A stretch of DNA of 59,509 bases from an uncultured Planctomycetia bacterium (GTDB lineage Bacteria > Omnitrophota > Gorgyraeia > 1-14-0-20-64-10). Location: positions 1-59,509 of the forward strand of contig CAZRTR010000003.1 of NCBI GenBank assembly GCA_964603095.1, written 5' to 3'. This document shows positions 225 through 59,492 of the stretch, one piece after another. Below the pieces are notes generated by a model, which saw only the letters and a list, made by a program, of their open reading frames with translations, did no database searches and was not told the origin of the DNA. The position numbers and the translations under genes are program-made. The stretch's first letter is position 1; each line of letters starts with the position of its first letter.

Positions 225-287
225 AGTGGGGAAAGAAGGGAAAGAGGAAGCGCTGCGGGCCAGACCTGGGATGTCGGGTGGGGAACA

Positions 288-296
288 TGGTAAAAT
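288..296 (+). promoter_or_regulatory. extended -10-like element TGGTAAAAT
   Basis: Lies 7 nt upstream of ATG 304. The same TGGTAnnnT signature precedes other accessory cassettes in this window. Confidence 0.35.
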
Positions 297-303
297 GGCT
301 GGG

Positions 304-498
304 ATGAGACGACGGACAAGGGTTCTTGCGTTAGATCGGGCGAACGAGTCCCGTGAGATCCAGTTTGAGCTGGATTTCCTGAGGTCTCTGACTATTGCCC
401 AGCGATTCCGTTTGATGCGGAAGAAAACCCGAGAGCTCCTCCAGCTTCTTCAGCACAGTGGACACCGAAGGCCTCCTCAAATTCTTCAAAGAGCATAA
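304..498 (+). CDS. small basic/helical protein, partner of nucleotidyltransferase (cassette 1)
   Basis: 64-aa ORF from an internal ATG of track ORF 226..498. It overlaps the downstream NTase by 41 nt. The same arrangement occurs at 7066 and 40692. Confidence 0.4.
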   Translation: MRRRTRVLALDRANESREIQFELDFLRSLTIAQRFRLMRKKTRELLQLLQHSGHRRPPQILQRA

Positions 499-922
499 GG
501 TCGATTTTGTCGTTATCGGGGCGACCGCCTTCCCGGTTCACGGTTATGCCCGCGCCACCCTCGACATCGACCTGTTCATTCGGCCGGCTCCAACCCATGC
601 CAAGCGGGCCTGGGTTGCTTTAAAGGCGTTCGGCTACGATATGGCCGACATTCCGATGGAGAGTCTTTTGCACAAGAAGCTCTTGATTCGCCAGTACGCG
701 GTGGAGGCCGATATTCATCCATTCGTGACCGGTGTGACATTCGACCGAATCTGGAAGAATAAGGTAGGGGCCAAATTCGGGAAGACAGCGGTCCACTTCG
801 CCTCCCTGGCTGATCTCATTGCTATGAAACGTGCTGCGGGTCGCCCCAAGGATCGGGAAGACCTGAAGTATCTCCTTCGCCTCAGGAAAGCGGAGTCCGA
901 CCTGCGCCGACAGGTAAAATAG
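458..922 (+). CDS. minimal nucleotidyltransferase-fold protein (paralog 1)
   Basis: Contains VVIGATAFPVHGYARATLDIDLF (G-x-D-x-D NTase core) and a C-terminal LIAMKRAAGRPKDREDLKYL motif. Both are shared with ORFs 7268 and 40901. The stop lies 2 nt before ATG 925. Confidence 0.75.
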   Translation: MDTEGLLKFFKEHKVDFVVIGATAFPVHGYARATLDIDLFIRPAPTHAKRAWVALKAFGYDMADIPMESLLHKKLLIRQYAVEADIHPFVTGVTFDRIWKNKVGAKFGKTAVHFASLADLIAMKRAAGRPKDREDLKYLLRLRKAESDLRRQVK

Positions 923-924
923 AG

Positions 925-12614: not shown

Positions 12615-13352
12615 ATGCGGCACCTGGGCCGGCTCAAGACAGGGGAGGTGGTCCGTAAGGGGAAATCGGACTGGGTCACCCGGATCGATCACGCTTCCGA
12701 GGATGCGATCATCCGTGTGTTGGCCAAGGCCTTTCCCAACCACTCGATGAAGGCGGAGGAATCCTCCCCTGAAGCCAAGGCGAGCCCCTATCAGTGGCTG
12801 ATCGATCCGCTGGACGGCACCGTCAACTACATCCACAGCTTCCCGTTTTTCGGCGTGTCGATCGCCCTCATGAAGGAAGGGGTTCTGGAGGTGGGGGCTG
12901 TCTACGACCCTTGCCGACAGGAGCTGTTCACCGCCCGGCGGGGCCGGGGGGCCTGGCTCAACGGCCGTCGCATTCGGGTTTCGCGCCACCCCGGTTTAAG
13001 GGAATCGCTGCTGGCCACCGGTTTCCCGTTCAGGGCCCGGGAGAATCTGGACCTTTATCTGAAGTCGTTCCGCCGGGTCTTCCTGGAAACCGGATCGATC
13101 CGCCGGGCCGGCTCCGCCGCCATCGACCTGGCCTACACCGCCTGCGGCCGGTTCGACGGCTTCTGGGAGATGGCCCTCTCCAGCTGGGACATGGCGGCCG
13201 GGGCTCTGCTGATTCAGGAAGCGGGCGGCAAGGTGAGCGACTTCTTAGGAAAACAAACCTACCTCGAAACGGGACACATCACCGCCGGGAATCCGGCGGT
13301 TCACCCCCGGTTGGTGAGGATCCTTCGGCCGATCTTCCGAGGGAAGATCTAA
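12615..13352 (+). CDS. suhB: inositol monophosphatase family protein (SuhB-like); N-terminus probably extends upstream
   Basis: Contains WLIDPLDGTVNY and WDMAAG motifs. The in-frame upstream stretch AVDAAQEAGRIL looks like a genuine N-terminal helix but has no ATG/GTG/TTG start; CTG 12549 is possible. Confidence 0.75.
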   Translation: MRHLGRLKTGEVVRKGKSDWVTRIDHASEDAIIRVLAKAFPNHSMKAEESSPEAKASPYQWLIDPLDGTVNYIHSFPFFGVSIALMKEGVLEVGAVYDPCRQELFTARRGRGAWLNGRRIRVSRHPGLRESLLATGFPFRARENLDLYLKSFRRVFLETGSIRRAGSAAIDLAYTACGRFDGFWEMALSSWDMAAGALLIQEAGGKVSDFLGKQTYLETGHITAGNPAVHPRLVRILRPIFRGKI

Positions 13353-13353
13353 T

Positions 13354-13380
13354 GGGGTCTGACCCCGCGGGGTCAGACCC
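13354..13380. terminator. palindromic repeat (GGGGTCTGACCCC x2) between convergent genes, likely bidirectional terminator
   Basis: The hairpin ggggtctgacccc-gc-ggggtcagaccc sits exactly between the stop codons of suhB and ORF 13380..13994. Confidence 0.5.
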
Positions 13381-13994
13381 TAAAGCTTCCCGACGGTGGC
13401 GGAGGCGCGGATGCTTGCCCAGATGGCCAAGCATCCCAGGAGGATCGCCATCCCCAGGGCCTGCGCGCTGATCGCCCCGTAATGAGAGGGGGCCAGCATC
13501 CCGAACAGCATCGGGCCGGAGAGGTAGGTGTTGATCCGGGAGGTCAGCAGGGCCTTCTTCCGCAGGGCCGGTGCCTGGTCGCCCGCCTTGCCGGTCAGTA
13601 GCTTTTTCTGGATCGGCCAGATCACGAACCAGACGTTGAACCACATGATCGTTCCCAGCAGCATCCCGAACAGGATCCACATCGCCCGCTGGGTGAGGTG
13701 TCCGGTTTCGATCAGAAGGGAAGTGGGGCCCAGCCCTGCGCCCGGGGTATAAAAATAGGTGAGGGTGAACAGGGTCAGCCCCGCCAGGAAAGTGATCATC
13801 GCTCCCCAGCGGAACCACCAGAGGGCCCGGGGCATCAGCTGCGGGTTCACCGCCTTCTTGGCGGCATCGTCCAGGGCTCCCTGCAGGGGGACGTTGACGA
13901 AATTGAAGAAGTACAGGTGTCCGATCCAGGTGATACCGGCGATCACATGCAACCATCGCACGACCAGGTGAAAGTTGCTGTACAGATCTGGCAT
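13380..13994 (-). CDS. integral membrane protein (resembles the membrane domain family of urate hydroxylase PuuD / COG3748)
   Basis: 204 aa with 4-5 hydrophobic helices and WLHVIAGITWIGHLYFFNF. The family assignment is from memory. Confidence 0.6.
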   Translation of the reverse strand: MPDLYSNFHLVVRWLHVIAGITWIGHLYFFNFVNVPLQGALDDAAKKAVNPQLMPRALWWFRWGAMITFLAGLTLFTLTYFYTPGAGLGPTSLLIETGHLTQRAMWILFGMLLGTIMWFNVWFVIWPIQKKLLTGKAGDQAPALRKKALLTSRINTYLSGPMLFGMLAPSHYGAISAQALGMAILLGCLAIWASIRASATVGKL

Positions 13995-14070
13995 CGCTTT
14001 CCTCCCTAAACAGGTTTGGCAAAGCTAAAACAAAACCCTTTCAGCGTGATACTATAACAGAATCTTTCAG

Positions 14071-15015
14071 ATGGAACAAGTTTACGATCTGATCATCATC
14101 GGAGGGGGGCCGGCCGGCGCGACCGCGGCCCTCTATGCCGCCCGGGCATCACTCAAAACCCTGGTGCTCGACAAGTCGTTGACCTCCGGCGCCCTCGGCG
14201 TGACCGCCAAGATCGCCAACTATCCCGGCGTCCCCGAGGTCCTGACCGGGGCGCAGTTGCTCAAGATCATGTGGGACCAGGCGGCCAGCTTCGGGGCGGA
14301 GATCAAAGCGGAGCAGGTCTTCACCGTCGATCTGTCCGGGGAGATCAAGAAGGTTTACACCGGAACGGGTGAATTCCAGGCCAAGAGTATCATCCTTTGC
14401 ACCGGGGCGATGGGGAGGAAGAACCGGGTTCCCGGGGAGGAGCCCCTCTGGGGCAAGGGGATCTCCAACTGCGGGACCTGCGACGCCGCCTTTTACAAAG
14501 ATCAGGAGGTGGCGGTGGTGGGGGACAACGAGGAGGCGCTGGAGGAGACGCTGTTCCTGACCCGGTACGTGAGCAAGGCCCACCTGGCGCTGCCATCGAA
14601 GAAGGTCAAGGCGAGCGAAGAGACGATTGCCCAGGTCAAGCAGAACCCCAAGGTCCGGTGGCTTTCGGAGTGGCGCTTGAAGTCGGTGGCGGGCAAAGAT
14701 CATCTGGAGTCGGTCACCTTCTTAAGCCCGGAGGGAGCTCAGACCCTGACGGTCAAGGGGCTGTTCATCTACCTTCAAGGGGGCCAGCCGATCACCGAGT
14801 TCCTGAAGGACAGCGGCGTCGAGATGGACCCGGCCGGATTCATCAAGGTCAACAAGGAGATGGCCACCAACTTGCCCGGGGTCTTCGCCTGCGGGGATGT
14901 CTTGGGCCATGAGGTGAAGCAGGCGGTGGTGGCGGCCGGGGAAGGGTGCATCGCCGCCCTGGCGGCCGACAAGTTCATCCACAAGCGGACCCGCGTCATC
15001 GCCGACTACAAATGA
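14071..15015 (+). CDS. thioredoxin reductase-like flavoprotein lacking the NADPH-binding motifs
   Basis: FAD motif GGGPAG and redox CGTCD are present. VVGDNEEALEE replaces GGGDxAxEE, and no HRRxxxR motif is present. Confidence 0.75.
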   Translation: MEQVYDLIIIGGGPAGATAALYAARASLKTLVLDKSLTSGALGVTAKIANYPGVPEVLTGAQLLKIMWDQAASFGAEIKAEQVFTVDLSGEIKKVYTGTGEFQAKSIILCTGAMGRKNRVPGEEPLWGKGISNCGTCDAAFYKDQEVAVVGDNEEALEETLFLTRYVSKAHLALPSKKVKASEETIAQVKQNPKVRWLSEWRLKSVAGKDHLESVTFLSPEGAQTLTVKGLFIYLQGGQPITEFLKDSGVEMDPAGFIKVNKEMATNLPGVFACGDVLGHEVKQAVVAAGEGCIAALAADKFIHKRTRVIADYK

Positions 15016-15053
15016 CCCCGCCCCTCCGGTTCCATGACCTCGCCCCAGCGCCA

Positions 15054-15104
15054 GGGACTGTCCCCGTCTTGTTACCAGCAGGTAGCTCCAAAGGGGACTG
15101 TCCC
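15054..15104. repeat. palindromic repeat family A, 2 units, intergenic
   Basis: Units gggactgtcccc (15054-15065) and ggggactgtccc (15093-15104) lie between the two trxB-like genes. Confidence 0.8.
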
Positions 15105-15226
15105 TTTTCAGTGGCCCACCCCCAGAAAGGGCGAGGTCACTCTGCCGAGCGGACGCTCGGCAGAGGCGCCGTCCAGGTTCTTCTTTATGCTGCGCCGAAC
15201 GACGGCGCAGGAACCGGAGGGGCGGG

Positions 15227-16162
15227 GTGAGCGTCGAGAATGTCGTCATCCTCGGCTCCGGCTGCGCCGGTTTGACGGCGGCGATCTACACCGCCCGGGC
15301 CGACTTGAAACCGCTTCTGGTCGAGGGTTCTTTGATGGGCGGGCAGCTGGCCATCACGACCGACGTGGAGAACTTTCCCGGATTCCCGGAGGGGATCCAG
15401 GGCCCGGAGCTGATGGAGCGGATGAAGAAGCAGGCCGAGCGCTTCGGCACCCGGTTCATCTCCGGCAGCGCCACGAAGGTGGATGTCCGGCAGCGCCCCT
15501 TTACCGTGGAGGTGGAGGATCAGGTTTTCAAGACCAAGGCCCTGATCGTGGCCACCGGCGCCTCGGCCAAGTTCCTGGGGTTGGAATCGGAGCAGGCCTT
15601 GATCGGCCACGGCGTCTCCGCCTGCGCTACCTGTGACGGCTTTTTCTTCAAAGGCAAAGAGGTAGTGGTGATCGGCGGCGGTGACACCGCCATGGAGGAG
15701 GCCACCTTCCTGACGAAGTTCGCCAACAAGGTGACGGTGGTCCACCGGCGGGAGGCCCTCCGGGCCTCCAAGATCATGCAGGAGCGGGCCAAGCAAAACC
15801 CGAAGATCCAATGGATTTTCAACTCGGAGGTAGTGGATGTCCGGGATCCGGCTATAAAAAAGGTCACCGGTGTCCGATTGAAGGATGTCAACGGCGGCAA
15901 GGAGACCGACCTCCCTTGTCAGGGGCTGTTCGTGGCGATCGGGCATGAGCCGAATACCGGGTTCCTCAAAGGGCAGGTGGAGTTGGACGAGAAGGGGTAT
16001 CTTATCTTAAAGAAGGGAACGCAGACGTCGGTGGAGGGGGTCTTCGGCTGCGGGGACATCCACGATGTCCGGTACAAGCAGGCGGTCTCCGCCGCCGGCT
16101 GGGGCTGCATGGCGGCGCTGGACTGCGAGCGGTACATTCAGGAACATGACGCATCCAACTGA
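15227..16162 (+). CDS. trxB: thioredoxin-disulfide reductase
   Basis: GTG start. Contains CATCDG, VIGGGDTAMEEA and VHRREALRAS motifs. Confidence 0.88.
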   Translation: MSVENVVILGSGCAGLTAAIYTARADLKPLLVEGSLMGGQLAITTDVENFPGFPEGIQGPELMERMKKQAERFGTRFISGSATKVDVRQRPFTVEVEDQVFKTKALIVATGASAKFLGLESEQALIGHGVSACATCDGFFFKGKEVVVIGGGDTAMEEATFLTKFANKVTVVHRREALRASKIMQERAKQNPKIQWIFNSEVVDVRDPAIKKVTGVRLKDVNGGKETDLPCQGLFVAIGHEPNTGFLKGQVELDEKGYLILKKGTQTSVEGVFGCGDIHDVRYKQAVSAAGWGCMAALDCERYIQEHDASN

Positions 16163-16919
16163 TTCCCTGTTCGATCTGACGGATAAGGTGGCCCTGGTGA
16201 CCGGGGCCTCCCGCGGTTTGGGCAAGGCGATGGCGGTGGCGCTGGCAAAGGCCGGATGCCATGTCGCGCTGAACGCCCGGGCGGCCGAGTCGCTCAAGGA
16301 GGTGTCCGAGGAGATCCAGCGGCTGGGCCGCCGGACCTTTCTCGCCGTGGGGGACGTGTCGGATGAGTCGCAGGTCGACTCGTTCGTCAAGGCGACCCAC
16401 CAGGAGTTCGGCCGGATCGACATCCTGGTGAACAACGCCGGGGTCTGGGAAGGAACTTACCTGGTCCGTTTGAAGAAGGAAGACTGGGACAAAGTGATTG
16501 AGACGAATCTGACCGGCGCCTTCCTCGTGGCCAAGGCGGTGGCCCGGATCATGCTGAAAGCCCGCTCCGGCAAGATCATCAACATCTCCTCCGTCTCCGG
16601 ATTTCGGGGCTCCCCCGAGTCGCTCGCCTACTGCGCGGCCAAGGCCGGGGTGATCCAGATGACCCGCGTCATGGCGATCGAGATGGGTCCGGCCGGCGTC
16701 CAGGTCAACGGCATCGCGCCGGGGCTGTTCGCCACCGACATGACGAAGGAGTACACCGAGGATCCGGAGGCGATGAAACAATACCTCCCCCGGATTCCTT
16801 CGCAGCGGTACGGGCAGCCGGAGGAGCTGGCCGGAACGGTCGTTTTCCTTTGCTCCAAGGCCTCGGACCACATCACCGGCCAGACGATCGTGATCGACGG
16901 CGGAGCGTCGCTCGTTTAA
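16146..16919 (+). CDS. SDR-family oxidoreductase (FabG/gluconate 5-dehydrogenase-like)
   Basis: Internal ATG of track ORF 16065. Contains VTGASRGLGKAM, NNAG and YCAAK. Confidence 0.8.
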   Translation: MTHPTDSLFDLTDKVALVTGASRGLGKAMAVALAKAGCHVALNARAAESLKEVSEEIQRLGRRTFLAVGDVSDESQVDSFVKATHQEFGRIDILVNNAGVWEGTYLVRLKKEDWDKVIETNLTGAFLVAKAVARIMLKARSGKIINISSVSGFRGSPESLAYCAAKAGVIQMTRVMAIEMGPAGVQVNGIAPGLFATDMTKEYTEDPEAMKQYLPRIPSQRYGQPEELAGTVVFLCSKASDHITGQTIVIDGGASLV

Positions 16920-16968
16920 GGTGTCTGACACCGTTTTGTCTGTTGAAAAGGTGTCTGACACCGTTTTT
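16918..16968. repeat. palindromic repeat family B (GGTGTCTGACACC), tandem 30-nt units
   Basis: aaggtgtctgacaccgtttt occurs twice, between the SDR stop and the glpK start. Confidence 0.85.
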
Positions 16969-16972
16969 AACA

Positions 16973-18445
16973 ATGAGTGACTTTATTCTGGCGATCGATC
17001 AGGGGACCACCGGAACCCGGGCCATCCTTTACGATCGCCGGGGCAGAGCCGTCTCCTCCTCCTACCAGGAGATCCGCCAGCATTTCCCGAAACCCGGCTG
17101 GGTGGAGCATGATCCGCAGGAGCTGTGGGCCTCCACCCTTCAAGTGATTCGCAAGGCGCTCGCGCAAAGCCGGACTCGGCCCGGCTCCATCGCGGCGATC
17201 GGGATCACCAACCAGCGGGAGACCACCCTCCTGTGGGACCGTCGGACCGGCCGCCCCGTCCATCGGGCGATCGTCTGGCAGGACCGCCGCACCGCCGAGA
17301 TCTGCCGGGCTCTCAAACGCCACGAGCCGTCCACCCGCCGGATCACCGGGCTGGTTCTGGACCCCTATTTCTCCGGCACCAAGATCGCCTGGCTCCTCAG
17401 ACATTCCCCCTCGATCGCCTCCGCCGCGAAAAAAGGGCGGCTCTGCTTCGGAACCGTCGACTCCTGGCTCCTCTGGAAACTGACCGGCGGCAGGGTGCAC
17501 GCCACCGACGTCACGAACGCCTCCCGGACTCTCTTGATGGATTTGAAGAGCAGCCGATGGTCCGACCCGATGCTCCGGATGCTTGATGTTCCAAAGGGGC
17601 TGCTCCCCCGGATCCTTCCCTCTAGTGGCCGGTTCGGCGCCACCGTCTCCGTGGGCCCTTTGCCGGCCGGCATCCCGATCACCGGGATCGCCGGGGACCA
17701 GCAGGCGGCCCTGTTCGGGCAGGGCTGCGTCCGGCCGGGCCAGGCCAAGAACACCTACGGGACCGGCTGTTTTCTTTTGATGCAGACCGGCCGCCGGCGG
17801 ATCCGGTCGACCCACGGCCTGATCACCACCGCCACCTGCGACGCGGCGGGGCAGCCGGCCTTTGGCCTGGAAGGTTCGGTCTTCATCGCGGGGGCGGCGA
17901 TCCAATGGCTGCGGGACGGCCTGGGGCTCATCCGGAAGGCGGCCGAGTCGGAACGGCTGGCCCGTTCGGTTCCGGATACCGGCGGGGTCTATTTCGTGCC
18001 CGCCTTCGTCGGGTTGGGGGCTCCTTACTGGCGGCCGGATGCCAGGGGCTTGATCTGCGGTTTGACCCGGGGGACGACGCGGGCCCATCTGGTGCGGGCC
18101 GCTCTGGAGGCGATCGCCTTCCAGTCGCAGGAGCTCCTCCAGGCAATGGAGCAGGATTCGAAGATTCGGCTTAAATCCCTCCGGGTTGACGGCGGTGCGG
18201 TGAGGAACAACTTCCTCCTCCAGTTCCAGGCCGATCTGGCCGGCCTCCCGGTGGTCCGGCCCAGGATCATCGAGACGACCGCGCTCGGGGCCGCCCAGTT
18301 GGCCGGGCTCGGGGTTGGCTTCTGGAGCCAGACCGATCTTGCCCGGATGCGGGCGGTCGACCGGTCCTTCCGCCCGGCCTGGAACCGCTCCCAGCGTGAG
18401 TCGGCCTTGAGCCGTTGGGAAGCCGCCATCCAGCGCGCATTATGA
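16973..18445 (+). CDS. glpK: glycerol kinase
   Basis: ILAIDQGTTGTRAILYD, GITNQRETT and FGTVDSWLLWKLTGG support the call. The start is an internal ATG of track ORF 16850. Confidence 0.92.
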   Translation: MSDFILAIDQGTTGTRAILYDRRGRAVSSSYQEIRQHFPKPGWVEHDPQELWASTLQVIRKALAQSRTRPGSIAAIGITNQRETTLLWDRRTGRPVHRAIVWQDRRTAEICRALKRHEPSTRRITGLVLDPYFSGTKIAWLLRHSPSIASAAKKGRLCFGTVDSWLLWKLTGGRVHATDVTNASRTLLMDLKSSRWSDPMLRMLDVPKGLLPRILPSSGRFGATVSVGPLPAGIPITGIAGDQQAALFGQGCVRPGQAKNTYGTGCFLLMQTGRRRIRSTHGLITTATCDAAGQPAFGLEGSVFIAGAAIQWLRDGLGLIRKAAESERLARSVPDTGGVYFVPAFVGLGAPYWRPDARGLICGLTRGTTRAHLVRAALEAIAFQSQELLQAMEQDSKIRLKSLRVDGGAVRNNFLLQFQADLAGLPVVRPRIIETTALGAAQLAGLGVGFWSQTDLARMRAVDRSFRPAWNRSQRESALSRWEAAIQRAL

Positions 18446-18460
18446 TCAATCCACGCGCCG

Positions 18461-18487
18461 TTCGCCCTGAGCTTGTCGAAGGGCGAA
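18461..18487. repeat. hairpin repeat family C, intergenic glpK-glpD
   Basis: ttcgccc-tgagcttgtcgaa-gggcgaa. Confidence 0.8.
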
Positions 18488-18494
18488 TGAGCTG

Positions 18495-19994
18495 ATGACT
18501 CGCGACCTCCCCCAGCTCTCCAACCAAACCTTCGACCTCCTGGTCATCGGCGGGGGCATCCTCGGCGCCGGCATCGCGTGGGACGCCGCCACCCGGGGGC
18601 TCTCCTGCGCCTTGGTGGAGCAGGGGGACTTCGCCGGCGGAACCTCCTCCAAGACGACCAAGCTGATCCACGGCGGGATCCGTTATCTTGAAAATCTGGA
18701 GTTCAAACTGGTCCGGCAATCGATCCGGGAGCGCTGGTGGCTGCTGCGCTTCGCCCCGAACCTGGTCAAGCCGTTGCCGTTCCTCGTCCCTGTGGTCGGG
18801 AACTCTCCCCGGCCCTGGCCGTTGGTGAAGATCGGCGTTTTCCTGTACGACCTTCTGGCCGGCAAGCGCTCGATCCACCCCCACCGGTTCCTGAACCGAT
18901 CTGAAGTGGAACAGATGGAGCCGCTCCTGCGTCAGGTGAAGGTCCGGAAGGGGGCCCTCTATTACGACGCCCAGATGGATGACGCCGGTCTCGTTCTGGA
19001 GGCGCTCAAGGCCGCCTCCCAGGCCGGGGCGAAGGCGGCCAATTACTGTCCGGTCACCCGGTTCCTTTCGCAAGGGGGCCGCCTGGTCGCAGCGGAGGTG
19101 GAGGATCGGTTGACCGGCAAACGGTTCGAGGTCCGCGCCCGGCTGCTGATCAACGCCACCGGCCCCTGGGTCGACCGCCTGCGCCGGTTAGCCGATCCCG
19201 CCGCCAAGCCGATCGTCCGCCCCTCCAAGGGGATTCATCTCCTCTATCCGGATTTGGGGCTCAGGCAGGCGCTGCTCCTCTCCTCCCCCAGCGACCAGAG
19301 GATCTTCTTCTTAATCCCCTGGCGGGGGATGACCCTGATCGGCACCACCGACACCGACTATTCCGGCGATCCGGGCGCCGCCCGCGCCGAGCCGTCCGAC
19401 GTGGAATATCTGATCCGTGAGACGAACCGGCTCCTCCCGAAGCTTCGGCTCGACCCCAAGAAGATTATCTCCACCTTCGCCGGGGTCCGTCCCCTCGTTG
19501 CCCAGGAGAAGAAAGATCCCTGGGCGGTCAGCCGCGGCCACCTCATCCACGAAGATTCCAACGGTCTCCTCAGCATTGTCGGCGGCAAGTTCACCACCTT
19601 CCGGATGATCGCGCAGGATCTCGTCGACCGGGTTTCTCCCCGACTGCCGGGAAAAGGGATCGGCCCCTGCCGGACCGGGCAGCTTCCCCTGGGTCGCGCC
19701 GAGGAGAAAGAGAGGATGATCCGAGGATGGATCGAGCAGGATCCCTCCCTAGCGCAGCCCCTGTGCCCCCACCATGCGTTCCGCAAGGCCGATCTCCGCT
19801 ACGCCGTAGAGGAAGAGATGGCCCTCCACCTCTCCGGCCTCCTGTTCCGCCGTCTCGGAGTCGCCTGGTCCCCCTGCCAGGGCCTCGACTCTCTCGACTC
19901 CGCCGCCGACTACCTCGGCCATCTCCTCGGCTGGGACCCCGCCGAGCGCCAGCGCCAAATCGCCGCCTACCGCCAGGAGATCTCGCTCGGGTAA
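18495..19994 (+). CDS. glpD: FAD-dependent glycerol-3-phosphate dehydrogenase
   Basis: DLLVIGGGILGAGIAWDAATRG, TSSKTTKLIHGGIRYL and position next to glpK support the call. Confidence 0.88.
   Translation: MTRDLPQLSNQTFDLLVIGGGILGAGIAWDAATRGLSCALVEQGDFAGGTSSKTTKLIHGGIRYLENLEFKLVRQSIRERWWLLRFAPNLVKPLPFLVPVVGNSPRPWPLVKIGVFLYDLLAGKRSIHPHRFLNRSEVEQMEPLLRQVKVRKGALYYDAQMDDAGLVLEALKAASQAGAKAANYCPVTRFLSQGGRLVAAEVEDRLTGKRFEVRARLLINATGPWVDRLRRLADPAAKPIVRPSKGIHLLYPDLGLRQALLLSSPSDQRIFFLIPWRGMTLIGTTDTDYSGDPGAARAEPSDVEYLIRETNRLLPKLRLDPKKIISTFAGVRPLVAQEKKDPWAVSRGHLIHEDSNGLLSIVGGKFTTFRMIAQDLVDRVSPRLPGKGIGPCRTGQLPLGRAEEKERMIRGWIEQDPSLAQPLCPHHAFRKADLRYAVEEEMALHLSGLLFRRLGVAWSPCQGLDSLDSAADYLGHLLGWDPAERQRQIAAYRQEISLG
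19919..19972. repeat. 54-bp perfect direct repeat, left copy (inside glpD 3' end)
   Basis: Identical to 21377..21430. Its flanks are similar but diverged, mostly at synonymous positions. Confidence 0.9.
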
Positions 19995-20095
19995 GCAGCC
20001 GGGTTTCCTTATTAAACGTTCCGCCCGTTTTGTTTAATAACGATTTTGCTTATGAAACGATCGTGAGATAAGGAACCGCAACTACTCGATGCGTT

Positions 20096-20127
20096 TGTGT
20101 AAAGTAATCGCTAAATTACTTTACACA
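20096..20127. promoter_or_regulatory. 13-bp perfect inverted repeat (putative operator) upstream of fic
   Basis: tgtgtaaagtaat-cgctaa-attactttacaca, with a TATAGT -10-like hexamer at 20140..20145. Confidence 0.5.
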
Positions 20128-20159
20128 AAATGGATTGCGTATAGTATACTTGACACAGG

Positions 20160-21272
20160 ATGGAACCCTTTATCGCTCAGTCTGTTCCGGTTACCAACGT
20201 CGACCTGGTTTCGCTGATTCCGCTCATCGGTCCAGCCAACCGAGCCGTAGCGCATTATGACGGCCTGCTCTATGGGATCCGGAACCCCCACGTTCTTTTA
20301 TCACCCTTGACGACGCAAGAAGCAGTCCTGTCCTCCCGCATTGAGGGAACTCAGGCGACGCTGGGAGAAGTGCTGAAATATGAAGCAGGTGAAGAGCCGG
20401 CGCAGGAGTCCAGGCGGCAGGACATCCAGGAAATCATCAATTACCGCCATGCCCTGCGCAGGGCGCAAGAGATCCTCAAGACCAAGCCGTTCCATCTGAA
20501 CCTGCTGTTGGAACTGCATGCCATCCTGCTGAACAGCGTGCGCGGTCGAGACAAGGAGCGTGGCCGGTTCCGGACAAAGCAGAATTGGATCGGTCCTCCG
20601 GACTGCCCCATCGAGCAGGCCCGCTTCGTACCGCCGGAACCGATGAGTGTCCCCGGACTGCTGGACAACTGGGAAAAGTATTATCACCGCGAAGAGCCCG
20701 ATGTGTTGGTGCAGCTGGCCGTCCTCCATGCGCAGTTCGAGATCATCCATCCGTTCGTGGATGGCAACGGTCGCATCGGCCGGCTGCTCCTGCCGCTGTT
20801 TCTCTACGAGAGGCGGCTGCTGTCCAAACCGATGTTCTATTTGTCCGCCTACTTCGAACGGCATCGTGACGAATATTACGAGCGCCTCCGCCCTCTCGGC
20901 GCATCGCAGGATGCCTGGAACCAATGGATTGCCTTCTTCTTGAAGGCGGTGTGTGAACAAGCCGATGAAAATACCAAGAAGGCGCGCCAGATCCTTGATC
21001 TCTATGAGCGGTTGAAAGATCGGGTGCGCGAGCTGACCCACTCGCAGTTTGCCGTGCCTTTATTGGATCGGTTGTTCGATCAACCCATCGTGCAGACCAC
21101 CGAACTTGCCCGTCATCGGTCCATGCCGAGCCGCCCGATGGTGATGGTCCTTTTGGGGAAGCTGAGAGCCGCCGGAATTCTGAAAACGGTTCGCCCCGGC
21201 AGCGGCCGCAGGGCCGAGGTGCTGGCCCTGGCCGAGCTCATCAATCTCTGCGAAGGGAGAAAGGTGTTTTGA
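20160..21272 (+). CDS. Fic family protein (AMPylase-type) with N-terminal inhibitory motif and C-terminal wHTH-like region
   Basis: Fic motif HPFVDGNGRIGR. SSRIEG matches the [ST]xxxE[GN] inhibitory helix. Confidence 0.88.
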   Translation: MEPFIAQSVPVTNVDLVSLIPLIGPANRAVAHYDGLLYGIRNPHVLLSPLTTQEAVLSSRIEGTQATLGEVLKYEAGEEPAQESRRQDIQEIINYRHALRRAQEILKTKPFHLNLLLELHAILLNSVRGRDKERGRFRTKQNWIGPPDCPIEQARFVPPEPMSVPGLLDNWEKYYHREEPDVLVQLAVLHAQFEIIHPFVDGNGRIGRLLLPLFLYERRLLSKPMFYLSAYFERHRDEYYERLRPLGASQDAWNQWIAFFLKAVCEQADENTKKARQILDLYERLKDRVRELTHSQFAVPLLDRLFDQPIVQTTELARHRSMPSRPMVMVLLGKLRAAGILKTVRPGSGRRAEVLALAELINLCEGRKVF

Positions 21273-54153: not shown

Positions 54154-54798
54154 ATGATGTTGCGACGGGCGTCCTACTGGGTGACGGGGTGGGTTCTGGC
54201 GATGCTCTTGACGGCGCCGATCCTGCTGTTTCAGGGCCGCGCCGCCTCCCACCGGGTTTCCTTCTCCTCTTCAGAGATGGCCCGGACCCAGGGACCTTTG
54301 GCCGCGCCGGTCCGGCTGGTGGAATACAGCAACTTCCGGTGTCCCGCCTGCCATGAGGTTCAGCCGACCCTGGCTCATCTTCTCGGCCGATACCCCGGCA
54401 AGATCCGGTATGAGTTCCGGCATTTCCCGGCGGCGAACGACCGCCGCTCGGTGATGGCCCATCTGGCGGCCGAGGCGGCGGCCGCCCAAGGCCGATTCTG
54501 GCCTTACCACCATCGGTTGTTTCAAGACCGGGCCCGACGGATGAACGCCTCGAACCCGTTGGAGTCGTTCCTCCAGTTCGCCGTGGAGTTGGGTTTGGAT
54601 GAAGATCGTTTCTCGATGGCGTTCGTCGATCCGGAGACATTGAAGCGTGTGGAGCAGGATCTGAACGCCGGTCGGGCGCTGGGGGTACGGGCCACTCCGG
54701 CCTTTTTCATCCAGGGCCATGTCCTGGTCGGGCCCCGTCAGTTCGAGCAGGAGGCGGAGAAATGGATCCAGGAAGCCCTTCAACCACCGGCAGCCTAG
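54154..54798 (+). CDS. DsbA-family thiol:disulfide oxidoreductase, membrane-anchored
   Basis: N-terminal TM helix and a FRCPAC active site. Confidence 0.8.
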   Translation: MMLRRASYWVTGWVLAMLLTAPILLFQGRAASHRVSFSSSEMARTQGPLAAPVRLVEYSNFRCPACHEVQPTLAHLLGRYPGKIRYEFRHFPAANDRRSVMAHLAAEAAAAQGRFWPYHHRLFQDRARRMNASNPLESFLQFAVELGLDEDRFSMAFVDPETLKRVEQDLNAGRALGVRATPAFFIQGHVLVGPRQFEQEAEKWIQEALQPPAA

Positions 54799-55223
54799 TG
54801 GTCCGCCTCTGCGCCCGGGCGCTTGTGGGGGCCGTCTTCGCCTACGCCGGGTTTTTGAAGCTGATGGAGCCCCCCGCCAACTTCCAGGCGGTTCTGGAGC
54901 ATTATCCGCTCCTGCCGGCGGCTCTAGCGCCGTTCCTGGCCCGGACGGTTCCTTGGGCGGAATGGCTGGGCGGGATGTTCCTGCTCATCGGCTACATGAC
55001 GCGGGCCGGCGCGCTGCTGCTGACGCTGCTGTCCCTGGGCTTCGTGGCGGTGTTGACCGGTTCGGTTTTCGGCCCCAAGGCGGCCGAATCGTGCGGCTGC
55101 TTCGGCTCCGGGCTGGCCTTGACCGTCCGCCAGGCCTATCTGCTCGACTGGGCCACCCTCCTTCTTGGGATTTTTCTTTTTCGGTTGGAGAGCCATCCTT
55201 TCGCGCTGGAGAATCGGTTATGA
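54798..55223 (+). CDS. DoxX/MauE-family membrane protein
   Basis: A GTG overlapping the DsbA stop is preferred over track start 54762. Four TM helices. Confidence 0.7.
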   Translation: MVRLCARALVGAVFAYAGFLKLMEPPANFQAVLEHYPLLPAALAPFLARTVPWAEWLGGMFLLIGYMTRAGALLLTLLSLGFVAVLTGSVFGPKAAESCGCFGSGLALTVRQAYLLDWATLLLGIFLFRLESHPFALENRL

Positions 55224-56175
55224 AGAGACGCGCACCCGCGCGCCAAATCAAGAAGGTCTGGAAGAGCATACCCACGATCGAAGGGGCCGGGGTCCGGCTG
55301 CGGCGTGTCTTCGGCTTCCATCAGGTGCCGCAGCTGGATCCGTTCCTGCTGCTGGACTGCTTTGATTCCGACAACCGGGATGACTACGTCAGGGGCTTCC
55401 CCTGGCACCCGCACCGGGGGATTGAGACGATCACCTACGTCTTGGACGGCGATGTAGAGCACCAGGACAGTCTGGGCAACAAAGGCGTCATCCGGCCGGG
55501 CGACGCGCAGTGGATGACGGCGGGCATCGGCATCATCCACCAGGAGATGCCGCAGGGATCTCCCACCGGTCGGATGTGGGGATTCCAGCTCTGGGCGAAC
55601 CTGCCCCGGAAGCAGAAGATGATGGATCCCAGGTACCGGGAGGTGACCGCCCAGCAGATCCCGGCGGTCAAGACCCCCGAGGGAGCGACGGTGCGGATCA
55701 TCTGCGGGGCGGTAGGCGGCGTGCAAGGGCCGGTCCGGGAGATCGTGACCGATCCGGAGTACCTGGATGTCTCACTGCCGGCGGGGAAAACCTTTACGCA
55801 TTCGGTCAAGCCGGGCTACAGGTTTTCGCCTACGTCGTTGAGGGGGAGGGCTACTTTGATCCGGGGCGCAATCCGTTCGACCGGCAAGTTATCGGGGAGA
55901 GCTATTTCGACATGAAGCCGTCGTGCGTCTGCAAGGAGGGGGAGATCGCCCTTTATGAGTCGGACGGAGACACCGTGCTGGTCGCGGCCGACAAGAAGCC
56001 CGTTCGCTTCCTGCTGGTATCCGGCAAGCCGCTCAAAGAGCCGGTCGCCTGGTACTGCCCGATCGTCATGAACAGCCAGGAGGAGCTGGAAACCGCCTTC
56101 CGGGAGTACCGAGCCGGAACCTTCGTCAAAGAGGTCGGCGCGCCGAGAGAAAAAACAAAGGAAAGGAGGAGCTAG
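55220..56175 (+). pseudogene. pirin-family protein interrupted by a frameshift near 55820
   Basis: The N-half (HPHRGIETITYV...) is in the frame of track ORF 54719. The C-half (VFAYVVEGEGYF...) is in the frame of ORF 55510. Total length is 956 nt, not a multiple of 3. Confidence 0.75.
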
Positions 56176-56178
56176 CCG

Positions 56179-56703
56179 ATGGGATTCCCTGAAGAGGCCA
56201 TGCTGGCGGCGTGCGCCGCCATGGAACAGGCGGCGGAGCGGGTTGTCATCACCGATCGGAAAGGGACCATTCTCTACGTCAACCCGGCTTTTGAAAGAAC
56301 GACCGGCTACAGCAAGACCGAGGCGATCGGGAAGAACCCGCGCATCGTGAAATCGGGCCAGCACGACCAGCGGTTCTATCAGGGGTTATGGAAGGCCTTG
56401 CTCAGCGGGCGGTCGTTCCATGCGCGCTTCTTGAACCGGAGGAAGAACGGCGAGCTGTACTACGAGGAGCAGACCATCTCTCCCCTCCGGGACGGGCGGG
56501 GGGAGGTGGCCTATTTTATCTCCACCGCGATCGATCTGACGCCTCGGGTCGAGCGGGAGCAGGGGCGCAAGCTCGCGGAGGAGAGCCTGCGGCGTCTCGA
56601 AGAAATCAGTGTGAGCCGGGAGGGCCGCGTCGTGGAGTTGAAGCTGGAGGTCAACGCCCTGTTGAAGGAGCTGGGAAGGGCGCCCAAATACCATCTGGGG
56701 TAG
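56179..56703 (+). CDS. single PAS-domain protein with conserved C-terminal helix motif
   Basis: PAS core (ITDRKGTILYVNPAFERTTGYSKTEAIGKNPR) and the tail REGRVVELKLEVNALLKELGRAPKY. Confidence 0.8.
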   Translation: MGFPEEAMLAACAAMEQAAERVVITDRKGTILYVNPAFERTTGYSKTEAIGKNPRIVKSGQHDQRFYQGLWKALLSGRSFHARFLNRRKNGELYYEEQTISPLRDGRGEVAYFISTAIDLTPRVEREQGRKLAEESLRRLEEISVSREGRVVELKLEVNALLKELGRAPKYHLG

Positions 56704-56793
56704 CGGAGTCACCTGTGGTCAGCGACCATACCGGGAGCTAGCATAGTGGTACCCGGTACCGAGGAGACAGGTTGAAAAGATTATTTCTCCAAA

Positions 56794-56928
56794 CCTACGG
56801 CTGACCATAGTGGTGGAATACCTGGACTTTCTGAACCACCCCGACAAGCGCCAGGGGAGGACGCCAGTCAGGTGCTCCAGGCGCTGGCGGAGGGGTTGCA
56901 GGTGGCGCTGGCTACCCTAGACTCATGA
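56794..56928 (+). repeat. cassette-boundary module copy R1 (codon-periodic, in frame with upstream gene)
   Basis: Encodes ..HSGGIPGLSEPP..QVLQALAEGLQVALATLDS-stop. Contains the 35-bp core at 56878..56912. Confidence 0.8.
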
Positions 56929-57029
56929 GGGGTATGATTGTTCGGATTGGAGCGAGATCGAGTCATCGGGTGATGGCCGCGTGCCGTTGGTAGACATGCT
57001 GGAGGTGGATGATGTCGGTTGAGCGCATT

Positions 57030-57041
57030 GGGGGGGGGGGG
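57030..57041. repeat. homopolymeric G12 tract
   Basis: Twelve consecutive G ending 1 nt before ATG 57043. Confidence 0.95.
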
Positions 57042-57042
57042 C

Positions 57043-57930
57043 ATGCAAGCACTTCTTGAACTGTTGCCGGATGCGGCCATTCTTACCGATCACGAAGGTC
57101 GGATCGTGCAGGCCAGCCGGCAAGCCGAGGTCATGTTCGGTTACGGCTCTGGCGAACTGCTGAACCAGCCCGTTGAGATGTTGATGCCGGAGCGCCTGCG
57201 TCGGCACCACGTCAAGCAGCGCCAGGGGTACGTCCGGCAGCCGACCAAGCGCCTCATGGGCCAGCGGGGGGTGGAGTTGTGGGGTCGGCGCAAGGACGGC
57301 AGCGAGTTCCCGGTGGACATCGCCATCGGCCCGTTCGAGGCAGCGGGCAACGGCCCGTTGGTGCTGGCGCTTGTCCGTGATATGACACTCCGAAGGAAGA
57401 TGGAATCACAGTTAAGCGAGCACCGGGAGCGCCTGCGCGCCATCGTGGAGACCTCCCGCGATGCCATCGTGGCCGCTGACCAGCAGGGGCGCGTGACCTA
57501 CTGGAATCCGACAGCCGAGTCCATGTTCGGGTACAGCGCAGAGGAGATGCACGGCCAGCCCCTCACACGGATTATGCCGGAGCGGTTCAAAGAGGCCCAT
57601 ACCGCAGGCATGAGCCGCTTCCTGACGACCGGAAAGTCGCGGGTCATCGGCCAGACGGTCGAGTTGGCAGGTCTGCGGAAAGACGGCACGGAGTTTCCGC
57701 TAGAGCTGTCGTTGGCAAGCTGGAAGCGAGACAGCGAGGCGATGTTCGCCGCCATCATCCGGGACATCACCGAGCGCAAACGAATCGAAGAGACGCTCAG
57801 GAAAGACAAAGACGCCCTGGAACGGGACATGAAGATCATGATGGATCGAGAGGGGCGCGTCGTGGAACTCAAACAAGAAATCAACGCCCTACTCAAAGAA
57901 CTGGGCCGCCCGCCGCAGTACGGGGCGTAA
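57043..57930 (+). CDS. tandem PAS-domain protein with the same C-terminal helix motif
   Basis: Two PAS cores and the tail REGRVVELKQEINALLKELGRPPQY. ATG 57043 is preferred. Track start TTG 57019 would translate the G tract. Confidence 0.8.
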   Translation: MQALLELLPDAAILTDHEGRIVQASRQAEVMFGYGSGELLNQPVEMLMPERLRRHHVKQRQGYVRQPTKRLMGQRGVELWGRRKDGSEFPVDIAIGPFEAAGNGPLVLALVRDMTLRRKMESQLSEHRERLRAIVETSRDAIVAADQQGRVTYWNPTAESMFGYSAEEMHGQPLTRIMPERFKEAHTAGMSRFLTTGKSRVIGQTVELAGLRKDGTEFPLELSLASWKRDSEAMFAAIIRDITERKRIEETLRKDKDALERDMKIMMDREGRVVELKQEINALLKELGRPPQYGA

Positions 57931-57951
57931 ACCGCATGGCACAACATATCT

Positions 57952-58119
57952 ACCTACGGTCATTCGGGTGACCGTTGTTCCGAGAACATAGAACTTTCTG
58001 AGCCAGGTGGGGACGTGGTATCGGCGGACACACTGCTGGTCTTTCAGGCGCTGGCGGAGGGGTTGCAGGTGGCGCTGGCGAACACAACAGAGGGCCGTCT
58101 CAACAATGACAACGCGTAG
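57952..58119 (+). repeat. cassette-boundary module copy R2
   Basis: Encodes TYGHSGDRCSENIELSEPGGD..LLVFQALAEGLQVALAN.. with no stop between the PAS gene's TAA and the module. The 35-bp core lies at 58045..58079. Confidence 0.8.
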
Positions 58120-58627
58120 CAGGAGGGTGTGGTGGCTGTTGTGGGCAGCCGTAGGGGGGGCAGTGGCTGGTGCATGGCTTCTGCTCCAACCTGGATATGC
58201 GGGGGAACCCGTGACCGATGAGGAAATCACGGAAATGTTCAAGCGGTCGCATAATGTCATGAAAGGGCAGAGCCAGCGCATCCATGCGATACTGGATGGT
58301 TTCTTCGCAGGCGATCTTGGGGCTGTCCAACGCCACGCTGAGGAACTTGCGCAAAGCGTAGATGCGGCGTCTCGCTTGTTTCCTCCCCAGGTGGGGAAGG
58401 AGGCTGATCAATGGGAGGCGATGGCGGAACTTGTTCGTCATGCAGCTCAGATGAAACAGGAAGCTGGGCGCGGGAACTACGGAGCAGCCTATCAGCACTT
58501 TTCGGCCATGACCTATCAGTGTCTCAAATGTCATCAGGTACGGAGAGACTGGGGCACTTTCCCTGAACCGAAGCTGCCTGACGAGAAGGAAGCCGACGCC
58601 AAGCAACAGGATCGACAGACCAATTGA
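58106..58627 (+). CDS. secreted class II (cytochrome c'-like) c-type cytochrome
   Basis: Internal ATG of track ORF 58007. Signal peptide, helical body, and a C-terminal CLKCH haem motif. Confidence 0.7.
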   Translation: MTTRSRRVWWLLWAAVGGAVAGAWLLLQPGYAGEPVTDEEITEMFKRSHNVMKGQSQRIHAILDGFFAGDLGAVQRHAEELAQSVDAASRLFPPQVGKEADQWEAMAELVRHAAQMKQEAGRGNYGAAYQHFSAMTYQCLKCHQVRRDWGTFPEPKLPDEKEADAKQQDRQTN

Positions 58628-58660
58628 TCTGTGAGATGAAACGTATCTGGTTGCAGACTT

Positions 58661-58795
58661 TTGGCTGGCCGTTGTTCCGGAATACCAGGATTATCCCAGT
58701 CCCCTCAGCCGGCTATGGCGGATCTAAACAGGGTCCTTCAAGTGGTTGCTGAGGGTTTACAGGTCGCCTTTGGCCGTGAATTAGAAATGGTATAA
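58661..58795 (+). repeat. cassette-boundary module copy R3 (diverged)
   Basis: Encodes ..GRCSGIPGLSQSPQPAMADLNRVLQVVAEGLQVAFGRELEMV-stop. It differs from the R1/R2 core mainly at third codon positions. Confidence 0.75.
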
Positions 58796-58813: not shown

Positions 58814-59152
58814 ATGACGCCACTGTGGGCTATAACGCCGGAGAAGATCGAGGAAGCTGTTCAGAAGATCATCGCTTTCGAACAGCCGAAGAGGATCATT
58901 CTGTTCGGTTCCGTTGCTCGGGGAGATACGAACATTCACAGCGATGTGGATTTCCTTGTTGTGACAAAGGATGAGGTCGAAAGTCCGCGCAAAGAAAGTG
59001 TTCGGATCCGCCAAGCGCTGGACAGCGTTTCGATGCCAATGGATATCCTGGTGATCTCGGAAAAGCGGCTGAAAGAGTTGGGAGAGCAGCCGGGTTTGGT
59101 CTATCGAGAGGCATTACGTGCCGGAAAAGTAGTTTATGAATCCGCCGCTTAG
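58814..59152 (+). CDS. MNT-type nucleotidyltransferase (type VII antitoxin-like)
   Basis: ILFGSVARGDTNIHSDVDFLV. Confidence 0.85.
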   Translation: MTPLWAITPEKIEEAVQKIIAFEQPKRIILFGSVARGDTNIHSDVDFLVVTKDEVESPRKESVRIRQALDSVSMPMDILVISEKRLKELGEQPGLVYREALRAGKVVYESAA

Positions 59153-59492
59153 ACGCGACCCTCCCGGTTCTCCCAAGGATTGGCTGGTTCACGCCGAGAG
59201 CGATCTTAAATTGGCACGTGTCGCCGGAGAGCGGAACGATATTCTTCCTGAGCAAGCGTGCTTCCATGCTCAACAATCAGCTGAGAAAGCTCTCAAGGCC
59301 GTCCTTCTCTTTAAGCGCATAGAGTTCCCTCTCGTTCACGACATTAAAACGCTTGTTGGCCTCCTGCAAGGGAATGCCATCCCTTTCCCTCCGGAGATCC
59401 GCGAGGCCGGCTCGCTTACTCCTTACGCCGTGGAAGCCCGTTATCCGGGGCATCTTGAACCTGAAAACGCCGCGAAGCGGCCCATTTTTTGA
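59136..59492 (+). CDS. HEPN-domain protein (toxin-like partner of MNT)
   Basis: Overlaps the MNT gene by 17 nt. Contains the HEPN-like helices AEKALKAVLL...HDIKTL. Confidence 0.8.
   Translation: MNPPLRRDPPGSPKDWLVHAESDLKLARVAGERNDILPEQACFHAQQSAEKALKAVLLFKRIEFPLVHDIKTLVGLLQGNAIPFPPEIREAGSLTPYAVEARYPGHLEPENAAKRPIF

Follow-up and report, generated by a model that had tools for sequence, protein, structure and literature searches.

The 3′ end of contig CAZRTR010000003.1, from an uncultured bacterium of the phylum Omnitrophota, carries a gene for a PAS-domain protein (PAS1), a second PAS gene (PAS2), a gene for a cytochrome c′-like protein, and an MNT/HEPN toxin-antitoxin pair. Three related modules of ~145 nt (R1, R2, and R3) are present in this region as separators of PAS2, the cytochrome c′ gene, and the MNT/HEPN pair, and they raise the question of how an intergenic repeat can vary like a protein-coding sequence and how genes came to be lined up between its copies. 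The window analyzed here is the entire contig of 59,509 nt, which ends inside the array, 17 nt past the HEPN gene. According to the explanation that we favor, to which we assign a probability of roughly 0.72, the modules are attL-type junctions that arose as mobile elements of one family repeatedly integrated, in a site-specific manner, at the miaB 5′ end in Candidatus Omnitrophota. The product of miaB is the tRNA i6A37 methylthiotransferase.

Three modules at the end of the contig

A first-pass annotation of the window had placed the modules behind PAS1, PAS2, and the cytochrome c′-like gene, with the MNT/HEPN pair following, and we recovered them at these places. The exact core that it described for R1 and R2 was borne out (a 26-nt piece of this core found a match in 0 of 100 shuffles), and R3 indeed retains the peptide AEGLQVA despite five synonymous changes, with its differences from the core lying mainly at third codon positions. 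The translated module bodies are related to each other (R1, ..HSGGIPGLSEPP..QALAEGLQVALA; R2, ..RCSENIELSEPGG..FQALAEGLQVALA; R3, ..RCSGIPGLSQSP..LQVVAEGLQVAF). The module boundaries had to be revised, as the true starts lie ~15–25 nt upstream of those assigned at first and coincide with start codons (R1, TTG at 56772; R2, ATG at 57936; R3, ATG at 58636). The conserved part of the modules ends at 56912 in R1, at 58079 in R2, and at about 58770 in R3, and the bodies reach their +1-frame stops at 56926–56928, 58117–58119, and 58793–58795, respectively.

Each module consists of a head, which comprises a start codon plus 10–11 miaB-like codons and ends in ..TAYGGNTG, and a body of ~110 nt that is open in the +1 frame. 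This anatomy explains why, as had been noticed at the outset, the R2 body stands behind a single TAA stop and the bodies of R1 and R3 behind one more stop: the head starts of R1 and R3 (TTGA and ATGA) read TGA in the +1 frame, whereas the R2 head (ATGG) does not. The view that the modules are always in frame with the preceding gene held for all three modules in the window and failed as a rule, since 9 of 25 modules elsewhere were in frame and 6 and 10 were in the other two frames. The consistent frame in the window is a matter of chance, and the frame is fixed only where the upstream gene is the integrase gene.

Module arrays in other genomes

A profile built from the three body peptides retrieved 42 small predicted proteins from metagenomes, in all of which ..FQALAEGLQVALA and a short variable stretch form the C-terminus. 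Genome and metagenome scans followed by nhmmer searches then located same-strand arrays of two to five copies in about 15 Candidatus Omnitrophota metagenome loci (referred to by L numbers below); one array-bearing contig is labelled Planctomycetales. The expectation of further copies was thus confirmed in related loci, and not in the 86 nt by which a sister assembly extends beyond the window end, where we found no further head or module. The copies are typically spaced 0.5–1.5 kb apart, and each interval contains one or two intact co-oriented genes. The cargo of the arrays includes RelE/HTH, PIN, Gp49/HTH, Fic, and TIR-domain proteins, DUF488, DoxX, an Na+/H+ exchanger, and PAS proteins. At other sites, the same head is combined with different bodies (“type 2”, a TGTCCGARCGTGTC type, and empty units of roughly 80 nt). 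No viral source of the module was found in protein and DNA scans of IMG/VR. Contigs often break at modules: the ends of the window and of several related contigs fall on a module, no more than ~250 nt from one, or shortly before miaB.

Two ‘empty’ units of ~115 nt (L004 9220–9335 and L031 5998–6112) consist of a head and a short hairpin body, which reads GATTTGGC..GCCAAATC in L004, and are followed at once by the next head. Such units may represent minimal cassettes or a further type of att site.

The module head as a copy of the miaB start

The heads conform to the consensus M[KS]K.[IVL][FYW][LV]QT[YF]G followed by TG, and the aligned copies of the module end in ..GGTGGCGCTGGC. Real miaB N-termini read MSKTVFLQTYGCQMN.. 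and MKRAVYVRSFGCQMN.., and in six loci (L002, L005, L006, L033, L036, and L037) the array runs directly into an intact miaB gene, which is followed by miaA, hflX, and hrcA. The presence of grpE and dnaK further downstream was confirmed in five of these six loci. All six MiaB proteins contain UPF0004 and radical SAM domains, and all except that of L033 also contain TRAM. The L004 array ends at a miaB stub of 54 nt. On the opposite side, a pirin gene is located upstream of the array in the window and in L004, L006, L019, and L037, with 78–84% nucleotide identity that always ends at window position 56129/56130. As this pirin gene is common to the window and the four other loci, the window array is assigned to the same pirin…miaB locus, and we infer that miaB lies beyond the end of the window contig with the array abutting it. 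The initial proposal of serial insertion at a protein-coding attachment site by a cassette-like system hence stood, with the correction that the site is not the 3′ end of the upstream gene and corresponds to the 5′ end of the downstream miaB.

How an insertion may leave miaB intact is illustrated by L019 and L033. A displaced head at L019 11826 (MKKSVYVRSFG) matches the orthologous miaB heads of L006 and L002, and the present miaB head in L033 (MRKSLYIATYG) is that of the element type. In this case, the element appears to have supplied a new in-frame 5′ end for miaB, with the displaced remnant of the old one remaining upstream.

Some miaB 5′ stubs exceed the 33-nt head. These are L004 10059–10112 (54 nt, with an in-frame TAG) and L036 6265–6399 (at least 65 nt), the latter lying in a 44-aa open reading frame (ORF) that matches UPF0004. 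Such long stubs suggest that other elements cross over further inside miaB.

A large serine recombinase gene across the site

On one 361-kb contig, the type-2 site at L019 11826 is separated from miaB by a 13.1-kb element. The last gene of this element (L033 8394–10043) encodes a large serine recombinase (LSR) of 549 aa with Resolvase (PF00239), Recombinase (PF07508), and Zn_ribbon_recom (PF13408) domains. Its N-terminal part contains the motif YTRVSTEDQ, and its nearest solved relatives in the PDB are the TP901-1, SPbeta SprA, and A118 integrases. The LSR gene overlaps miaB by 43 nt in the miaB +1 frame, and the module body is open in exactly this frame. In addition, residues 1–79 of the metagenomic ORF P0023 match LSR residues 471–549 (46% identity, E = 6e-20), and P0023 then continues in frame via a head (..ECILVPMAG) into RCSGNIELSGPSGEGMSADTLLVFQALAEGL; the metagenomic ORF P0016 does likewise. 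Since these LSR stubs read into the body, the body represents a 3′ integrase tail of ~37 codons, and attP is situated inside the integrase gene. The parent gene ending in ..QALAEGLQVALA that the first-pass annotation had predicted therefore exists in a sense, namely as LSR integrase stubs that run in frame into the module. In L005, a decayed N-terminal LSR fragment abuts the first module. Taken together, an element-terminal gene beside the att site that is predicted to encode an LSR with catalytic serine, recombinase, and zinc-ribbon domains is present in the related locus and not in the window.

Another candidate for the catalyst is a small resolvase/invertase-type serine recombinase (~225 aa, with a divergent HTH_17 partner). 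In that case the modules would be res-like sites, with the crossover subsite at the left and accessory subsites at the right of the 145-nt module, and the cassettes would be resolved as circles. A small serine recombinase gene indeed occurs 2.7 kb from the last L019 site and 1.5–2.3 kb from two modules in L023, a locus that was found starting from the recombinase and not from the module, and in length the module is close to the Tn3 res site (~114 bp). However, the homologues in L020, L021, and L022 reside within phage-like or Prim-Pol elements that lack modules. Modules occur near the small recombinase in one of three distinct long-contig contexts examined. In L019/L033, moreover, the small recombinase is internal to the element, whereas the gene that runs physically into the site is that of the LSR. 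A coding signature rather than that of a binding site marks the right half of the module, and resolvases seldom integrate DNA. We thus consider a res-like nature of the modules improbable.

A different LSR element is found between dprA and thiS-topA on two groundwater contigs (L021 11482–13302 and L022 13334–15154). It comprises Prim-Pol, HTH_17, a small serine recombinase, and a 606-aa LSR, and on these contigs the small recombinase family travels in LSR elements with other targets.

Coding signatures and structure of the module

The periodic substitutions do derive from translated sequence, as the first-pass annotation had assumed, and the pattern persisted when ~30 copies from other loci were considered. 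In the 3′ half of the body, the third-position entropy across these copies is 1.36 compared to 0.91 and 0.79. In this 3′ part, the +1 frame has a synonymous/non-synonymous ratio of 0.74 and one stop in 544 codons, whereas the other five frames show ratios of 0.09–0.36 and 7–14 stops. The head varies mainly at third codon positions as read in the miaB frame. No periodicity is seen over the first ~45 nt of the body, a stretch that contains the putative P′ half-site. A module that consists of miaB codons 1–11 plus an integrase tail, each in its own frame, accounts for these codon-periodic statistics.

Several other sources of the pattern were considered and rejected. Coding on the minus strand was dismissed because of 13 stops and a ratio of 0.36 in that frame. 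A descent of the body from diverged miaB codons 19–36 was suggested by the resemblance of DASQVLQALAEGLQVA to DSEEVLGMLTAQGYEIA, yet the DNA alignment was no better than that of random windows (p about 0.02–0.7), and Pfam UPF0004 matched only an artificial chimera into which we had inserted CQMNE. A programmed +1 frameshift at GGC-TGA-C, which would join head and body, does not fit either, as type-1b copies have TGG at this position and GGC is not slippery.

The body ORF could also be at work today as a short upstream ORF that mediates translational coupling to promoterless cargo, similar to ORF-11 in attI1 of class 1 integrons, and such a role would be compatible with modules that originated as integration junctions at miaB. 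Its low number of stops across the ~30 diverged copies and the conservative L/F/I replacements are consistent with this idea, as is its extension through unique sequence up to the cargo start. In 18 of 25 cases, its stop lies ≤25 nt from the cargo start, often with an overlap (TAAATG, ATGA). However, the other two frames also stop near the cargo start in 14/25 and 7/25 cases, so that this coupling test is only suggestive. Furthermore, most copies lack an ATG, GTG, or TTG in the body frame near the junction, and descent from an integrase tail already accounts for the coding signature. A present-day function of this kind seems unlikely to us.

The general layout of the arrays, with short, co-oriented, and tightly packed cassettes that are rich in toxin-antitoxin and defence genes and are separated by a ~140-nt repeat, also resembles that of an integron or of a cluster of attC sites lacking an integron integrase (CALIN). 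The modules would then be taxon-specific attC sites, which are recombined as folded single strands by the IntI tyrosine recombinase. An attC-like hairpin was not detected: DNA folding of both strands of the modules was no better than that of shuffles (z from −1.0 to +1.2), and RNAalifold on 29 copies yielded a consensus of ~0 kcal/mol for both strands with RNA and DNA parameters. RYYYAAC and GTTRRRY boxes are absent at the module boundaries, and neither an intI-like gene nor a tyrosine recombinase was found by tblastn and Pfam among the scanned genes in the window or beside the arrays. Instead of an IntI/attI/Pc platform, pirin and miaB-miaA-hflX border the arrays. Considering these differences, an attC identity of the modules is extremely improbable.

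An Rfam scan of the modules gave nothing above the gathering score (two sub-threshold chance matches appeared at a permissive E-value), ARAGORN detected no tRNA or tmRNA, and searches for promoters and terminators within the modules yielded nothing exceeding the shuffle level. Together with the absence of a consensus fold, this excludes that the modules are a structured RNA. Diversity-generating retroelements, clustered regularly interspaced short palindromic repeats (CRISPR), repetitive extragenic palindromes (REP), and miniature inverted-repeat transposable elements (MITE) were excluded on anatomy, as there is no reverse transcriptase and there are no adenine-specific differences or terminal inverted repeats. 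These repeat classes also do not fit the spacing of 0.5–1.5 kb occupied by intact genes.

Crossover point and cassette exchange

The loci L006 and L019 share an Na+/H+ exchanger block of 1368 nt (87% identity; blastn), outside of which the heads and neighbours differ. This block extends from directly past one head (..GGNTG/GCCG.., with the slash marking the joint) to directly past the next head, and because both limits fall on head ends, the exchanged unit consists of body, cargo, and head. Several cassettes recur across genomes in different orders, including those with RelE/HTH, DoxX, AHSA1, a 179-aa ORF, and a PAS1-like gene. A comparison of L031 with L002 indicates that heads pass between miaB and the array, since the cassette head at L031 7239 hardly differs from the head of the genuine L002 miaB gene. 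The boundary reads ATG..TAYGGNTG/RCCRTWG; the junction maps to GGNTG/, and few bases are shared across the joint. An imperfect dyad surrounds the joint (AGACCTACGGC-TG-GCCGTTGTTCC), and there is little identity between site types. The dyad and the low identity would be consistent with a serine-recombinase core, in which TG is the presumable central dinucleotide.

That all modules open with a miaB-like segment, and that longer miaB 5′ stubs exist at L004 10059 and L036 6265, might alternatively mean that the miaB 5′ region underwent segmental duplication and homologous recombination without a dedicated recombinase and trapped genes between its copies. Apart from those stubs, however, all junctions occur at GGNTG/ with only a few bases of identity across them. 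As the bodies also have no significant similarity to miaB and the LSR gene is built across the site, such an origin by duplication is very improbable.

Proposed mechanism of array growth

In our model of integration at miaB, the parent elements would encode an LSR whose gene spans attP. To the left of the crossover, the element would carry its own copy of miaB codons 1–11, the head, which can be read in the miaB frame and, in the +1 frame, as part of the integrase C-terminus. To the right would follow the P′ half-site plus about 37 more integrase codons, which together form the body. Crossover is proposed to occur at ..TAYGGNTG/, where the Cys codon of the MiaB TYGC motif begins with this TG. 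Upon integration, the element head would be joined to miaB, so that miaB remains intact and the integrase loses its tail. On the other side of the insert, the old miaB head would meet the body, creating a module. As the heads are interchangeable, the new joint between head and miaB could again serve as a target and each module would be equivalent to an attP. Later insertions would then stack beside miaB and shift older ones toward pirin. The LSR is the likely catalyst of these events, and units without an integrase, which consist of a body, one or two genes, and a head, could be moved in trans. For the window, the expected outcome would be cassette A (PAS2), cassette B (cytochrome c′), and cassette C (MNT/HEPN), the last of which is cut by the contig end.

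A number of observations weigh against this explanation. The window itself contains no miaB, and its link to this gene rests on pirin synteny and module identity. In L008, L023, and L032, modules occur without miaB within 7–10 kb downstream. The nearby recombinase anticipated by the first-pass annotation was not found in the window when a small serine recombinase, an LSR, and a Xer-type recombinase served as tblastn queries. In protein databases, no full-length LSR that ends in the type-1 tail was found either: when 1.84 billion proteins were searched exhaustively with a profile, all of the 51 matches were ≤147 aa long, and among 5.8 billion word-indexed proteins there was likewise no intact parent protein with this tail. 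The sole intact LSR that we observed belongs with a different body type (type 2). Most cassettes contain no integrase debris, and the model does not account for how they came to be so compact, with one or two genes each. The usual rules of LSR recombination bar attP × attP recombination, so that excision of a single internal cassette is not accounted for. Finally, neither an excised circle nor an empty allele with pirin directly joined to miaB was observed (no read-level data), and integration and excision are indicated only indirectly, by cassettes that different genomes share in different contexts.

A more far-reaching possibility, which we regard as tentative and rather doubtful, is that the arrays are a working, integron-like gene capture system based on a serine recombinase. 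Integrase-less cassettes of one or two genes, each with a full attP equivalent made up of the miaB-mimicking head and the P′ half-site, would then be caught and released in trans at the miaB start. The integrase tail, which would be lost on integration and restored when a cassette lands downstream, might act as an integration-state sensor or a directionality switch.

Features of the window

The coordinates of the array in the window are summarized in Table 1.

Table 1 Features of the module array at the 3′ end of the 59,509-nt window
Feature	Position	Strand	Evidence and description
Left edge of variable region	56130..56178	+	Pirin homology (blastn; L004, L006, L019, L037) stops at 56129/56130, ~45 nt before the pirin stop codon
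PAS1 gene, 174 aa	56179..56703	+	Pfam; no module on the left here
R1 head	56772..56803	+	Copy of the miaB start, TTG KRLFLQTYG then TG; predicted crossover after 56803
R1 body, type 1a	56804..56928	+	First ~25 nt, putative P′ half-site; remainder, +1-frame integrase-tail remnant DHSGGIPGLSEPP..QALAEGLQVALATLDS, then stop
PAS2, two PAS domains; cargo of cassette A (56804–57970)	57043..57930	+	Pfam
R2 head; 3′ end of cassette A	57936..57970	+	ATG AQHIYLRSFG then TG; like native miaB heads ..VYVRSFG of L002 and L006
R2 body, type 1b	57971..58119	+	DRCSENIELSEPGG..FQALAEGLQVALANTT.., then stop; stop overlaps cytochrome gene start by 14 nt
Cytochrome c′-like protein; cargo of cassette B (57971–58667)	58106..58627	+	Gene call; Pfam PF01322, E = 3.7e-5, slightly under the curated cut-off
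R3 head; 3′ end of cassette B	58636..58667	+	ATG KRIWLQTFG then TG
R3 body, 1b/1a hybrid subtype	58668..58795	+	GRCSGIPGLSQSP..LQVVAEGLQVAFGRELEMV, then stop
MNT/HEPN toxin-antitoxin pair; cargo of cassette C (58668 to beyond contig end)	58814..59492	+	Pfam; MNT 58814–59152, HEPN 59136–59492

The PAS1 homologue in L012 is a cassette with modules on both sides, as L012 829–1073 matches window positions 56234–56478 and modules are located at L012 565 and 1307. Judging from this comparison, PAS1 in the window probably represents either an old cassette or a flank gene. PAS1 and PAS2 share the C-terminal motif REGRVVELK.E.NALLKELGR.P.Y (56617–56691 and 57847–57921; 71% nucleotide identity), and small PAS proteins are repeatedly found as cassette cargo, for example at L012 768–1295 and L013 13237–13821. 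A run of 13 G at 57029–57041, directly 5′ of the PAS2 ATG (57043), lies within an alternative ORF with a TTG start at 57019. This run may serve slipped-strand phase variation or be a sequencing artefact. In the cytochrome c′-like protein, a signal peptide is combined with the motif CLKCH at the C-terminus. At the end of HEPN, shortly before the contig stops, a GC hairpin with a T-run (59469–59490) resembles a terminator.

The pirin gene of the window (55221–56175) is frameshifted near 55800–55915, which results in the ORFs 54719..55915 and 55510..56175. It is also split in the sister assembly, and the L006 orthologue is intact and encodes 337 aa. The split pirin gene is either a pseudogene or an assembly error common to both assemblies. 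Giant ORFs occur in the window at 925–6909 (1994 aa), in L002 at 14–5878 (1954 aa), and in L023 at 12968–20672 (3394 aa, with a GGDEF domain), and those of L002 and L023 are situated directly upstream of arrays.

Comparison with known systems

In the literature searched, we found no description of cassette arrays that are aimed at miaB in Omnitrophota. Composite islands and ccr-less pseudo-elements are known for the staphylococcal cassette chromosome (SCC), with examples given in PMC7029136 and PMC12648241. The miaB arrays share with SCC a probable integrase of the LSR type, a target at one end of an RNA-modification gene, tandem units, direct repeats that contain target codons, and the occurrence of integrase-less units alongside. 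SCC elements are many kb in size, use LSR-type integrases to insert at the 3′ end of rlmH in Firmicutes, and have repeats of 15–20 bp. In contrast, the arrays described here occupy the 5′ end of miaB in Omnitrophota, have a repeat that the integrase tail lengthens to ~145 nt, and mostly consist of 0.5–1.5-kb units with one or two genes.

Insertion at the start of a coding region is known from SXT/R391, which integrates in the 5′ end of prfC. Genomic islands and prophages integrate in the 5′ end of dusA, and the only MiaB-like target named in this context is rimO (PMC4482086). Like these islands, the miaB elements insert into a 5′ coding region, supply a new 5′ end, and leave the old remnant behind. 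Both dusA and miaB, unlike prfC, are tRNA-modification genes. The dusA and prfC islands, however, use tyrosine integrases and are single large islands, and neither arrays of mini-cassettes nor an attP within the integrase gene have been described for them. As their predicted integrase is a serine recombinase, the miaB arrays would be an analogue and not a member of the dusA/prfC-type family.

Features shared with integrons are the fixed capture site, the short, co-oriented, and mostly promoterless cassettes, the toxin-antitoxin and defence cargo, and the reordering of cassettes between genomes. The arrays differ from integrons in the lack of an attC hairpin, IntI, and attI/Pc, in the likely use of a serine enzyme, and in a capture site that is the start of an essential-type gene and has to be rebuilt by each cassette. 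Tandem accretion is also typical of cis-mobilizable elements (CIMEs). Tycheposons grow by repeated integration at tRNA genes (bioRxiv 10.1101/2020.12.28.424599). As in both of these, growth of the miaB arrays takes place at a single site, newer elements would push older ones inward, and partial target copies and integrase fragments are left in between. The repeats of tycheposons are partial tRNAs, whereas the target is protein-coding here and the repeat also holds a piece of the integrase. In the integration-dependent immunity of mycobacteriophages, attP is located inside the repressor gene and integration removes a C-terminal degradation tag. An example of this system is presented in PMC9635641. 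The likeness lies in an attP within a coding sequence of the element and a C-terminus that is altered by integration, and the difference lies in the gene that is cut, which is the integrase here and not a repressor.

Implications

The modules show that a codon-periodic intergenic repeat can be composed of two displaced coding pieces in two frames, which may serve as a template for interpreting other “coding-looking” repeats. For metagenome assembly, such module repeats are a cause of contig breaks. The arrays represent a second enzymatic route to an integron-like architecture, which likely employs an LSR instead of a tyrosine integrase and a folded attC. In the poorly known phylum Omnitrophota, the start of miaB is a hot spot that gathers toxin-antitoxin, defence, transporter, and sensor genes. 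Moreover, an attP within the integrase gene and a C-terminus that is swapped on integration suggest a candidate for the sensing of the integration state by a serine integrase. If true, such self-regulation of the integrase would be of interest to mobile-element biology and to those who use serine integrases for genome engineering.

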